A stretch of DNA of 64,000 bases. Origin: Escherichia coli (lineage in GTDB: Bacteria > Pseudomonadota > Gammaproteobacteria > Enterobacterales > Enterobacteriaceae). The stretch lies in assembly GCF_050920415.1 (NCBI RefSeq), contig NZ_CP169309.1. One strand, 5' to 3'. Below are positions 60,001 to 64,000 of this stretch, in pieces (position 1 is the stretch's first letter; each line of letters opens with the position of its first letter). Position numbers: made by a program.

Positions 60001-63000
60001 AGTAAAACGGAAATCAGTAGTATTAAGCTAAATAGTGAAACCATCCCGGTTTATCAGTTGCGCTATAACGGCAATAACGCCCTGATGTTCGCAACTTATC
60101 AGGACAAGATGCTGGTGTTTTCCAGCACGGACATGCTGTTTAAAGATGATCAGCAGGATACCGAAGCCACGGCGATCGCAAGTGATTTGTTGAGCGGTAA
60201 AAAACGCTGGCAAGCCAGCTTTGGCCTGGAAGAGCGTACTGCCGAAAAAACGCCAGTACGCCAGCGCATCGTGGTCAGTGCAAATTTGCTGGGTTTTGGC
60301 TACCAGCGATTAATGCCTTCTTTTGCTGGTGTGCGCTTCGAAATGAGCAACGACGGCTGGCACAGTTTTCTGGCGTTAAATGATGAATCCGCAAGCGTAG
60401 ATGCCAGTTTCGATTTTACGCCTGTATGGAACAGTATGCCCGCAGGGGCCAGCTTCTGTGTGGCGGTGCCTTATTCACATGGTATTGCTGAAGAGATGCT
60501 TTCCCACATCAGCCAGGAAAACGACAAGCTCAACGGGGCGTTAGACGGTGCTGCGGGGCTGTGCTGGTATGAAGATTCAAAATTGCAAACCCCGCTGTTT
60601 GTCGGTCAGTTTGATGGCTCAGCCGAACAGGCACAACTGCCTGGAAAACTGTTTACGCAAAATATTGGTGCGCACGAAAGCAAAGCGCCAGAAGGTGTTT
60701 TGCCGGTAAACCAGACTCAGCAGGGCGAAGCGCAAATCTGGCGTCGCGAAGTGAGTTCCCGATACGGCCAGTATCCGAAAGCACAGGCGGCGCAACCAGA
60801 TCAATTAATGTCGGATTATTTTTTCCGCGTGTCGCTGGCGATGCAAAACAAGACGATGCTTTTCTCCCTCGATGACACGCTGGTCAATAACGCGTTGCAA
60901 ACACTGAATAAAACCCGCCCGGCAATGGTGGATGTGATACCCACTGAAGGCATTGTTCCGGTCTATATCAATCCACAAGGCGTGGCGAAACTGCTGCGTA
61001 ACGAAACGCTGACCAGTCTGCCGAAGAATCTCGAACCGGTTTTTTATAACGCCGCACAAACTTTATTAATGCCGAAGCTGGACGCTTTATCTCAACAACC
61101 GCGTTATGTCATGAAGCTGGCCCAGATGGAACCCGGTGCCGCCTGGCAGTGGCTACCCATTACCTGGCAGCCACTATGAGGCACGGGCTGCTGGCGCTGA
61201 TTTGCTGGCTGTGTTGTGTTGTTGCTCATAGCGAAATGCTGAATGTCGAACAATCGGGGCTGTTTCGCGCCTGGTTTGTGCGCATTGCACAGGAACAGCT
61301 TCGCCAGGGGCCAAGTCCGCGCTGGTATCAGCAGGATTGTGCGGGCCTGGTGCGATTTTCGGCGAACGAGGCGCTGAAAGTTCACGACAGCAAATGGCTA
61401 AAAAGTAACGGTATAGCAAGTCAGTATTTGCCGCCTGAAATGACGCTAACACCTGAACAGCGTCAACTGGCGCAAAACTGGAATCAGGGGAACGGAAAAA
61501 CCGGCCCCTATGTGACCGCGATTAATTTGATTCAGTACAACAGCCAATTTATTGGCCAGGACATAAACCAGGCGTTGCCTGGCGATATGATTTTTTTCGA
61601 TCAGGGCGATGCCCAGCACTTAATGGTCTGGATGGGGCGTTACGTCATCTACCACACCGGAAGCGCCACGAAAACTGACAACGGAATGCGCGCAGTCAGT
61701 CTGCAACAACTTATGACATGGAAGGACACCCGATGGATACCCAACGATTCCAATCCCAATTTCATTGGCATTTATCGTTTAAATTTTCTGGCGCGATAGC
61801 AGCGTGCTTGTGCCTGTCTCTTGTGGGAACAGGGCTTGCTAATGCTGATGATTCGCTTCCTTCCAGTAACTATGCGCCACCCGCCGGGGGAACATTCTTT
61901 TTGCTCGCTGACAGCAGTTTTAGCAGCAGTGAAGAGGCGAAAGTGCGACTGGAAGCGCCGGGGCGTGATTATCGGCGTTACCAGATGGAAGAGTACGGCG
62001 GCGTGGACGTTCGCCTGTATCGTATTCCTGACCCGATGGCATTTTTGCGCCAGCAGAAAAACCTGCATCGCATTGTGGTGCAACCGCAATATCTGGGCGA
62101 CGGGCTGAACAATACGCTAACCTGGCTGTGGGATAACTGGTATGGCAAATCTCGCCGTGTAATGCAGCGTACTTTCTCTTCTCAGTCACGGCAGAATGTG
62201 ACTCAGGCGTTACCCGAATTACAGCTCGGTAATGCCATTGTTAAACCTTCCCGTTATGTACAGAACAGCCAGTTTTCACCGCTGAAAAAATATCCACTGG
62301 TGGAACAGTTCCGCTATCCACTATGGCAGGCAAAACCGGTCGAGCCGCAGCAAGGGGTAAAACTGGAAGGCGCATCCAGCAATTTCATCTCGCCGCAGCC
62401 GGGCAACATCTATATTCCTCTCGGCAAACAAGAGCCGGGACTGTATCTCGTCGAGGCGATGGTCGGTGGGTATCGGGCAACGACGGTGGTATTTGTCTCC
62501 GATACCGTGGCGCTTAGCAAAGTGTCAGGCAACGAACTTCTGGTGTGGACTGCTGGCAAAAAACAGGGTGAAGCGAAGCCAGGCTCAGAGATCCTGTGGA
62601 CTGACGGTCTTGGCGTGATGACTCGCGGTGTGACCGATGACAGCGGTACCTTGCAGTTACAACATATATCGCCGGAACGTTCATACATTCTGGGTAAAGA
62701 TGCAGAAGGCGGCGTTTTTGTCTCCGAGAATTTTTTCTACGAAAGTGAAATCTACAATACCCGCTTGTATATCTTTACTGATCGCCCGCTATATCGCGCA
62801 GGCGATCGTGTCGATGTTAAAGTGATGGGCCGCGAGTTCCACGATCCGTTGCATTCATCCCCTATCGTCAGCGCACCGGCGAAACTTTCAGTGCTGGATG
62901 CTAATGGCAGCCTGTTGCAAACCGTCAATGTCACGCTGGATGCGCGTAATGGCGGGCAGGGGAGTTTCCGCCTGCCAGAAAATGCCGTTGCCGGAGGTTA

Positions 63001-64000
63001 TGAATTACGTCTTGCTTACCGCAATCAGGTCTATAGCAGTAGTTTTCGCGTAGCCAACTATATCAAGCCACATTTCGAGATTGGTTTAGCTCTCGACAAA
63101 AAAGAGTTCAAAACAGGCGAAGCGGTTAGCGGCAAACTGCAACTGCTTTACCCTGATGGCGAGCCGGTAAAAGATGCCCGCGTGCAGTTAAGTTTGCGCG
63201 CTCAGCAATTATCAATGGTCGGTAACGATTTGCGTTATGCCGGACGTTTCCCGGTGTCGCTGGAAGGCAGTGAAACGGTTTCCGACGATAATGGTCATGT
63301 GGCGTTAAATCTCCCCGCCGCCGATAAACCAAGCCGTTATTTGTTAACTGTCTCCGCCAGTGACGGCGCGGCGTATCGTGTTACCACCACCAAAGAGATC
63401 CTCATTGAACGTGGTCTGGCGCATTACACTTTGAGCACCGCCGCACAATACAGCAATAGCGGTGAATCGGTTGTTTTCCGTTATGCTGCGCTGGAATCTT
63501 CAAAACAGGTTCCTGTTACGTATGAGTGGTTGCGTCTGGAAGACCGCACGAGCCACAGCGGAGATCTACCTTCTGGCGGCAAATCCTTTACCGTCAATTT
63601 CGATAAACCAGGCAATTACAACCTGACGTTACGCGATAAAGACGGCTTAATTCTCGCCGGGTTAAGCCATGCCGTCAGCGGTAAGGGCAGCACGGCGCAT
63701 ACTGGTACGGTAGATATCGTGGCGGATAAAACGCTGTACCAGCCAGGCGAAACCGCGAAGATGCTGATTACCTTCCCGGAGCCAATTGATGAAGCGTTAT
63801 TGACGCTGGAACGCGATCGCGTTGAACAGCAGTCGCTGCTATCGCATCCGGCAAACTGGCTGACGTTACAACGTTTAAACGATACCCAGTATGAAGCCCG
63901 CGTACCGGTGAACAATTCCTTTGCGCCTAACATCACTTTTTCGGTGCTGTATACCCGTAACGGTCAGTACAGTTTTCAGAACGCCGGGATCAAAGTTGCC

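Follow-up and report, generated by a model that had tools for sequence, protein, structure and literature searches.

Whether yfaS, a gene of the alpha-2-macroglobulin (A2M) family that is a pseudogene in the K-12 strain of Escherichia coli, is intact in other strains, and what kind of protein it would then encode, is the question raised by a stretch of 64,000 nucleotides from contig NZ_CP169309.1 (hereafter the window), the 3′ end of which falls within this gene. The region in question, at positions 61733..64000 of the plus strand, is read here, with a probability of roughly 0.88, as the 5′-terminal half of a yfaS gene that is intact and occupies the third place in a yfaA-yfaT-yfaS-yfaQ-yfaP cluster, which is flanked by gyrA and atoB, in an E. 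coli strain other than K-12, with a predicted product that is an exported macroglobulin resembling MagD of Pseudomonas aeruginosa.

As the initial annotation had proposed, translation from 61733 gives 756 sense codons and no stops up to the window edge, and these represent codons 1-756 of a gene of 1534 codons that runs past that edge. The nearest in-frame stop on the 5′ side is a TGA at 61676-61678. Judged from its sequence, the frame is not the product of chance, because it encodes the MG2, bait-region and A2M domains of a macroglobulin and shares 95% DNA identity with the K-12 yfaS, the differences being mostly synonymous.

Integrity of yfaS and the lesion in K-12

The sequence past position 64000 was read in a proxy genome. 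When positions 61000-64000 served as the megablast query against 5426 complete E. coli genomes, 5394 of these matched, 48 of them at an identity of at least 99%, and a single genome, that of strain MFDS1022581 (NZ_CP169399.1), matched at 100%. Positions 52000-64000 of the window are identical to this genome at 12,001 of 12,001 positions. In the remainder of the window, BLAST found six single-nucleotide polymorphisms (SNPs) over approximately 48.7 kb and one copy of the insertion sequence (IS) IS2 as the only differences between the two. The IS2 element is inserted in glpQ of MFDS1022581 (window ~46559-46564) and is absent from the window; with this extra element, the two sequences are not co-linear from position 1.

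In the locus taken from MFDS1022581 (L001), window positions 61733-64000 correspond to 9734-12001 and the gene ends at 14338, which gives a protein of 1534 residues. The frame thus stays open past the window edge to the total of approximately 1500 codons that had been anticipated, and next come yfaQ and yfaP, both intact, and then atoB. The annotation of MFDS1022581 by the Prokaryotic Genome Annotation Pipeline (PGAP) likewise presents yfaS, yfaQ and yfaP as intact, with protein accessions. The intact allele described here, with 1534 open codons and TGG at codon 1368, is therefore composed of codons 1-756 from the window and codons 757-1534 from MFDS1022581, and by way of this proxy yfaS is very probably intact in the strain from which the window derives. 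Of the yfaA-yfaT-yfaS cluster that the initial annotation had regarded as intact, yfaA and yfaT are complete in the window itself, and the full-length open yfaS is that of MFDS1022581.

The K-12 gene is annotated as a pseudogene, just as the initial annotation had stated, and is designated b4500 in MG1655 (formerly yfaS_1/yfaS_2; the older split name "yfaS_1, pseudogene" appears in PMC3175480). It occupies the same locus, begins at the same ATG and, at 4605 nt, equals the intact gene in length. Its translation is interrupted by one in-frame stop only, W1368* (TGG>TGA; NC_000913.3 2330299-2330301). A frameshift, which an alignment to K-12 had been expected to locate, is ruled out by the equal gene lengths and by the TGA being the only lesion. 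Because this single lesion sits at codon 1368, 612 codons past the window edge, the frame within the window cannot separate an intact allele from a K-12-like one; K-12 is equally open across the same 756 codons, and the part of the earlier claim that took the open frame as a sign of intactness does not stand. An open frame that ends at the edge of a window is no evidence of intactness when the lesion of the reference lies further 3′.

A 31-mer bearing the TGA allele is present in 364 of the 5426 complete genomes, and all 40 of the carriers that were sampled look to be laboratory strains of the K-12 lineage (MG1655, BW25113, DH1, C600, HB101, MC4100 and similar, together with a few isolates that have K-12-sized genomes). 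The equivalent TGG 31-mer occurs in 1412 genomes, and those with neither form presumably carry silent-site differences nearby. The stop, which is probably recent, deprives the product of its last 167 residues, a conserved segment that contains most of the match to the bMG10 domain and many family-invariant positions (e.g., LYLDE, PLPPG and RFSQKG). The K-12 stop is a TGA directly before a C (NC_000913.3). UGA-C is a leaky stop context in which read-through inserts Trp, and on such general grounds K-12 might yield traces of full-length, wild-type YfaS, Trp being the ancestral residue at this position.

Over its full length, the intact yfaS differs from that of K-12 at 227 of 4605 nt (95.07% nucleotide identity), with 36 amino-acid substitutions. 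At the level of codons, 182 differences are synonymous and 37 non-synonymous, and this large excess of synonymous changes points to purifying selection on yfaS. The divergence is not peculiar to the gene, as flanking genes are 93-98% identical to K-12, indicative of a strain background distant from it; values are 97.75% for gyrA, 94.4% for yfaA and 93.0% for atoB, with 90.5% and 80.8% for the gyrA-yfaA and yfaP-atoB spacers, respectively. That only 48 of the 5426 genomes reach 99% identity at the yfaS locus leads to the same view of the lineage. The range of 93-98% identity to K-12 holds for the ubiG-gyrA-yfa-ato region at large, from ubiG to atoE (window 55848-64000 and L001 beyond).

A different form of the gene is found in another E. 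coli lineage, where the product (P0042; 999 residues, 54 contigs) lacks about 505 codons through an in-frame deletion, corresponding to YfaS residues ~411-914. The junction joins ...DARNGGQG to GQGRAYLRS, and the bait region is gone together with several MG domains. By its sequence, this deletion, which is not in the window, represents decay of yfaS that arose separately from the nonsense codon of K-12.

It is very unlikely that yfaS is also disrupted in the present strain, whether by a stop, a frameshift, an IS element or a deletion somewhere past 64000. Such a lesion would be in keeping with the end of the window at codon 756, with the IS2 that distinguishes this strain from MFDS1022581 elsewhere, and with the repeated decay of yfaS in E. 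coli, as exemplified by W1368*, the P0042 deletion and many truncated products among the homologues. Yet over its last 12 kb the window matches, without a single difference, a genome in which yfaS is intact, the intact 1504-residue form of YfaS makes up a cluster (P0003) of 40,950 member sequences, and the sampled carriers of the TGA allele look K-12-like in lineage, whereas the yfaS of the window is only 95% identical to that of K-12.

The translation start and the predicted export signal

In-frame candidates for the yfaS start are ATG 61718, ATG 61733, ATA 61796, TTG 61808, CTG 61814 and GTG 61823. Among these, ATG 61733 is the best supported by the sequence, because it alone combines a Shine-Dalgarno motif with a full Sec signal peptide. 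The motif read from the sequence, GGAAGGA (61720..61726, plus strand), lies 6 nt 5′ of this ATG, and no comparable one precedes any other in-frame candidate, including GTG 61823 and ATG 61718, the latter being rejected for this reason. The ATA, TTG and CTG codons would each leave a signal peptide that is too short and devoid of a charged n-region. The start originally proposed is upheld by the Shine-Dalgarno motif and by alignment to homologues, and the 67-bp overlap with yfaT noted at the time is correct, the stop codon of yfaT occupying 61797-61799.

RefSeq and PGAP place the start at GTG 61823..61825 (plus strand), which is codon 31 of the frame described here (L001 CDS 9824-14338), and this is probably a systematic mis-call that is 30 codons too short. 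Were the GTG correct, YfaS would be a protein of 1504 residues with no signal peptide, either cytoplasmic or otherwise not exported. This shorter form is the one chosen by PGAP for the large E. coli cluster, P0003, and it avoids the overlap with yfaT, but its first codon leaves 8 residues ahead of the conserved site of signal-peptidase cleavage, with no room for a signal peptide, and cuts in half the one hydrophobic segment that YfaS has. Moreover, the GTG has no Shine-Dalgarno motif, whereas AAGGA precedes ATG 61733, and this upstream ATG is used by both the curated K-12 pseudogene and the protein of E. albertii. The operon partners of yfaS all carry export sequences, and MagD is periplasmic (PMC3735191). 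The unexported form is accordingly considered improbable. If mis-called, this start, carried by tens of thousands of entries for E. coli YfaS, would mislead predictions of localisation.

The upstream ATG at 61733 finds a parallel in Superficieibacter, where gene callers likewise chose a truncated start for yfaS and the extended frame begins at the same MDTQR... ATG. In that gene, the h-region, LCLPLLIAAALGLPPAHA, is encoded only when this ATG is used, with predicted cleavage before GDELPSS, so that the same upstream start is required. Certain gene models from Serratia and Pseudomonas contain the extension as well, in the form MDTxxxxxQxxxHLS. As the sequences indicate, it is conserved because it overlaps the codons for the conserved C-terminus of YfaT/MagC, and it provides no functional evidence by itself; the yfaS ATG arises from cgA-TGG, which encodes an Arg-Trp pair of YfaT.

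From ATG 61733, homologue alignment and hydropathy predict a Sec signal peptide of 38 codons (61733..61846, plus strand) that ends in ANA, with cleavage before DDSLPSSNY. It would feature a long n-region of 17 residues followed by an h-region (residues 18-35); nowhere in YfaS outside residues 14-38 is there a strongly hydrophobic 19-mer. The homologues of Serratia, Yersinia, Pseudomonas and other genera display N-terminal Sec signal peptides ending in AxA, directly after which comes a conserved mature N-terminus ([GDE][DE]xLPxSxY...FFLLxDSSF), and Ala38 is the first invariant column in an alignment of 14 sequences. Although the N-terminus had at first seemed unconvincing as a signal peptide, a Sec signal cleaved by signal peptidase I is plausible, given that the junction between ANA and DD aligns with the cleavage sites of the homologues.

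The initial annotation had also pointed to a possible lipobox, IAAC. As a lipoprotein, YfaS would be cut by signal peptidase II between IAA and Cys25 and anchored by the lipidated Cys25, in the manner of the type I macroglobulin YfhM/ECAM. IAAC does fit a loose lipobox pattern ([LVI][ASTVI][GAS]C), Cys25 is retained in K-12 and E. albertii, and lipidation is a feature of the bacterial A2Ms of type I (PMC3735191). However, only about 7 hydrophobic residues precede Cys25, and the hydrophobic core extends 13 residues beyond it and would have to stay in the mature protein. The Cys is not conserved outside Escherichia, with no aligned counterpart in the Serratia, Yersinia and Pseudomonas homologues, which have in common the AxA cleavage motif, the invariant Ala38 and the ensuing [DE][DE]xLPxSxY. 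The relative MagD has no lipobox, is not a lipoprotein and reaches the membrane through MagB (PMC3735191, PMC5764988). Use of the IAAC motif is thus unlikely and a lipid-anchored YfaS is given very little credence; the alignment and hydropathy favour a type II-like Sec signal cleaved between ANA and DD, although Cys25 of the E. coli protein does lie in a loose lipobox.

Family membership and the yfa gene cluster

The gene at 61733..64000 (plus strand) is designated a type II, thioester-less bacterial A2M, and its Pfam domains are MG2, A2M_BRD, A2M and bMG10. The MG2 macroglobulin domain (PF01835, E=2.1e-26) spans residues 344-440 (62762..63052, plus strand), the region with the best profile matches to the structures of ECAM/YfhM and the Salmonella A2M. 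It is followed by the bait-region domain (PF07703, E=1.4e-17) at residues 661-806, which the window edge cuts at residue 756 (63713..64000, plus strand). The protein of the proxy genome further presents the A2M domain at residues 871-953 (E=3.2e-12) and bMG10 at residues 1410-1517. The first three domains score above the curated cut-offs of Pfam, and bMG10 reaches 26.6 bits against a cut-off of 26.2. By these domains, YfaS is a member of the alpha-2-macroglobulin/complement C3 superfamily.

A profile of the YfaS family searched against the PDB retrieves ECAM/YfhM (4RTD, 5A42, 4ZIQ; E~5e-13) and the Salmonella A2M (4U48), and also reaches complement C5, CD109 and TEP1. The family profile was needed, as a single-sequence phmmer search of the PDB with full-length YfaS gave only a marginal match to complement C5. 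NCBIfam holds no model for YfaS, YfaT or YfaQ. Relative to homologues from Pseudomonas, Serratia and Yersinia, YfaS displays 54-57% identity over 96-100% of its length.

No CxEQ motif occurs anywhere in the 1534 residues of YfaS, and the site that aligns with the thioester reads GGVINTGSR (residues 1068-1076, past the window in MFDS1022581). By its sequence, YfaS thus shares the absence of CxEQ that typifies type II. Among the best 120 YfaS/MagD-type homologues, CVEQ is found at the thioester-equivalent site in 32, of which the named ones are all Pseudomonas (including P0063, P0068-P0071, P0096, P0105 and P0120). GVEQ is found in 17 of the 120, where E. coli has GVIN, and GVVN in 9 others, including those of E. 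albertii and Superficieibacter. One of the CVEQ members, P0063 (locus L005 8001-12557), lies in a complete six-gene mag-type operon, and owing to members such as this, the statement in the literature that the thioester motif is missing from type II A2Ms does not hold throughout the family.

The cluster begins with yfaA (59491..61179, plus strand), which according to the proxy annotation encodes a MagB-like DUF2138 protein of 562 residues (Pfam DUF2138, 2e-286), the hydropathy of which indicates a hydrophobic anchor near the N-terminus (residues 12-34). The second gene, yfaT (61176..61799, plus strand), is annotated in the proxy as encoding a DUF1175/MagC protein of 207 residues that is NlpC/P60-like and bears a signal peptide (Pfam DUF1175, 1.5e-58, with a weak NLPC_P60 match). 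Past the window, in MFDS1022581, yfaS is followed by yfaQ, the product of which contains two DUF2300 repeats and a weak SpoIID match, and by yfaP, which encodes a DUF2135 protein. Each of these appears to have an N-terminal signal peptide, so that all five products of the cluster bear N-terminal export or anchor sequences. The order DUF2138, DUF1175/MagC, A2M, DUF2300 and DUF2135/YfaP is, by sequence, the mag-type operon associated with type II A2Ms. The same order is seen at two Pseudomonas loci with homologues of 55-56% identity (L004 and L005), where one extra YfaP_C-type gene comes first to complete the six-gene magABCDEF, and the Superficieibacter locus (L003) has the five-gene form as in E. 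coli. In Pseudomonas sp. LRF_L74, a second, divergently transcribed macroglobulin gene of at least 1946 codons (L005 1-4387, minus strand) adjoins the mag-type operon, its product containing the bMG3, MG2, bMG5, A2M_BRD, A2M and bMG10 domains.

The closest characterized relative to which YfaS may be compared is MagD (PA4489) of P. aeruginosa. Both are macroglobulins of approximately 1500 residues with MG2, bait-region and A2M domains, and neither has CxEQ; MagD has a Sec signal peptide and no functional lipobox, as is predicted for YfaS. Each gene is preceded by those for the DUF2138 and DUF1175/MagC proteins and followed by those for the DUF2300 and DUF2135/YfaP proteins. They differ in that E. 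coli has five genes to the six of Pseudomonas, with the YfaP_C-type gene at the magA position absent, in that yfaS overlaps the preceding gene by 67 nt compared to only 4 nt in Pseudomonas, and in the three Cys residues of the E. coli protein.

Type I macroglobulins, typified by YfhM/ECAM and Sa-A2M (4RTD, 5A42, 4ZIQ, 4U48), belong to the same superfamily, and proteins of both types act in periplasmic protection of the envelope. The YfaS-family profile matches type I both in the MG domains and near the region of the thioester domain (E-values of 5e-13 to 3e-11). Type I proteins, however, have a CLEQ thioester motif and a lipobox, and their gene lies beside pbpC, whereas YfaS presents GGVIN, a predicted signal peptide of the signal peptidase I type and the yfa/mag neighbourhood. 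With no CxEQ, with yfaT and yfaQ rather than pbpC as neighbours, and with a match to YfhM that is distant and at the level of profiles, YfaS does not have the features of type I.

Several points weigh against the reading of this region as part of an intact, MagD-like gene. The window covers only the first 756 codons of yfaS and the others were read in MFDS1022581, from which the window differs elsewhere by six SNPs and one IS2, so that identity past 64000 is likely rather than certain. The 38-residue signal peptide, its 17-residue n-region and the 67-nt gene overlap are all unusual, and the E. coli cluster is without the sixth gene, at the magA position, that is found in Pseudomonas. A scan for promoters and terminators in or around the gyrA-yfaA spacer found none, and no sigma-70-like promoter was detected in the spacer. 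The identity of 54-57% was measured to homologues from the genus Pseudomonas and not to PA4489 itself. Finally, a literature search on E. coli YfaS returned incidental mentions only and no experiment, so that its function is transferred from homologues.

Elsewhere in the window, yfaL (54621-55592, plus strand) is a remnant of 972 nt compared to the 3753-nt autotransporter adhesin gene of K-12, and is annotated as "missing C-terminus" in the genome of MFDS1022581, which is identical here. The interval between ypaB and ubiG is approximately 2.65 kb shorter than in K-12. The gene for the ElaD/SseL-family deubiquitinase, elaD (~13259-14481, minus strand), is frameshifted according to the MFDS1022581 annotation, and since the window aligns to the elaD of that genome without gaps, the frameshift should be common to both. 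Between glpQ and inaA (~47531-49390), the same annotation lists a run of remnants, namely a hypothetical gene with a frameshift, a fragment of the LysR family and a short open reading frame that is partial.

Proposed function and significance

The function of YfaS may be considered in light of the Mag system. MagD is an exported protein that MagB links to the inner membrane (PMC3735191, PMC5764988). It binds MagA, MagB and MagF in 1:1 complexes, and is degraded when MagB is missing (PMC3735191, PMC5764988). Upon cleavage of its bait region, MagD traps the protease non-covalently, in the absence of a thioester (PMC5764988). The mag operon protects against peptidoglycan-targeting type VI secretion effectors (PMC12663445), and both types of A2M are carried by E. 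coli (PMC5764988).

In the mechanism proposed for E. coli, the first codon translated would be ATG 61733, which lies within the 3′-terminal part of yfaT, and YfaS would be exported by the Sec machinery and cleaved after Ala38. By analogy with MagD, it may then serve as the core of a periplasmic, inner-membrane-associated complex held by its operon partners, with YfaA as a MagB-like anchor, YfaT as an NlpC/P60-like MagC, and YfaQ and YfaP as the putative equivalents of MagE and MagF, respectively. YfaS would plausibly trap proteases non-covalently once its bait region is cleaved, and the Yfa complex might help to shield the envelope and peptidoglycan from incoming hydrolases. That the Yfa cluster, where natural E. 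coli strains carry it intact, operates as a working periplasmic defence complex like the Mag system of Pseudomonas is a tentative proposal, drawn from homologues, that must at present be regarded as rather doubtful.

The yfaS gene is a known member of the type II (MagD/YfaS) family at its standard chromosomal locus. A second, thioester-less macroglobulin of E. coli and its pseudogene in K-12 are both part of standard annotation and literature, and what is described here is a known strain difference rather than a discovery. The single nonsense codon of K-12 would be easy to repair, or to compare with natural alleles, in studies of a Mag-like complex of E. coli. If the proposed role in defence is true, K-12 would be a natural null or near-null for this system, biasing experiments that use K-12 as prey or as a model of envelope stress.

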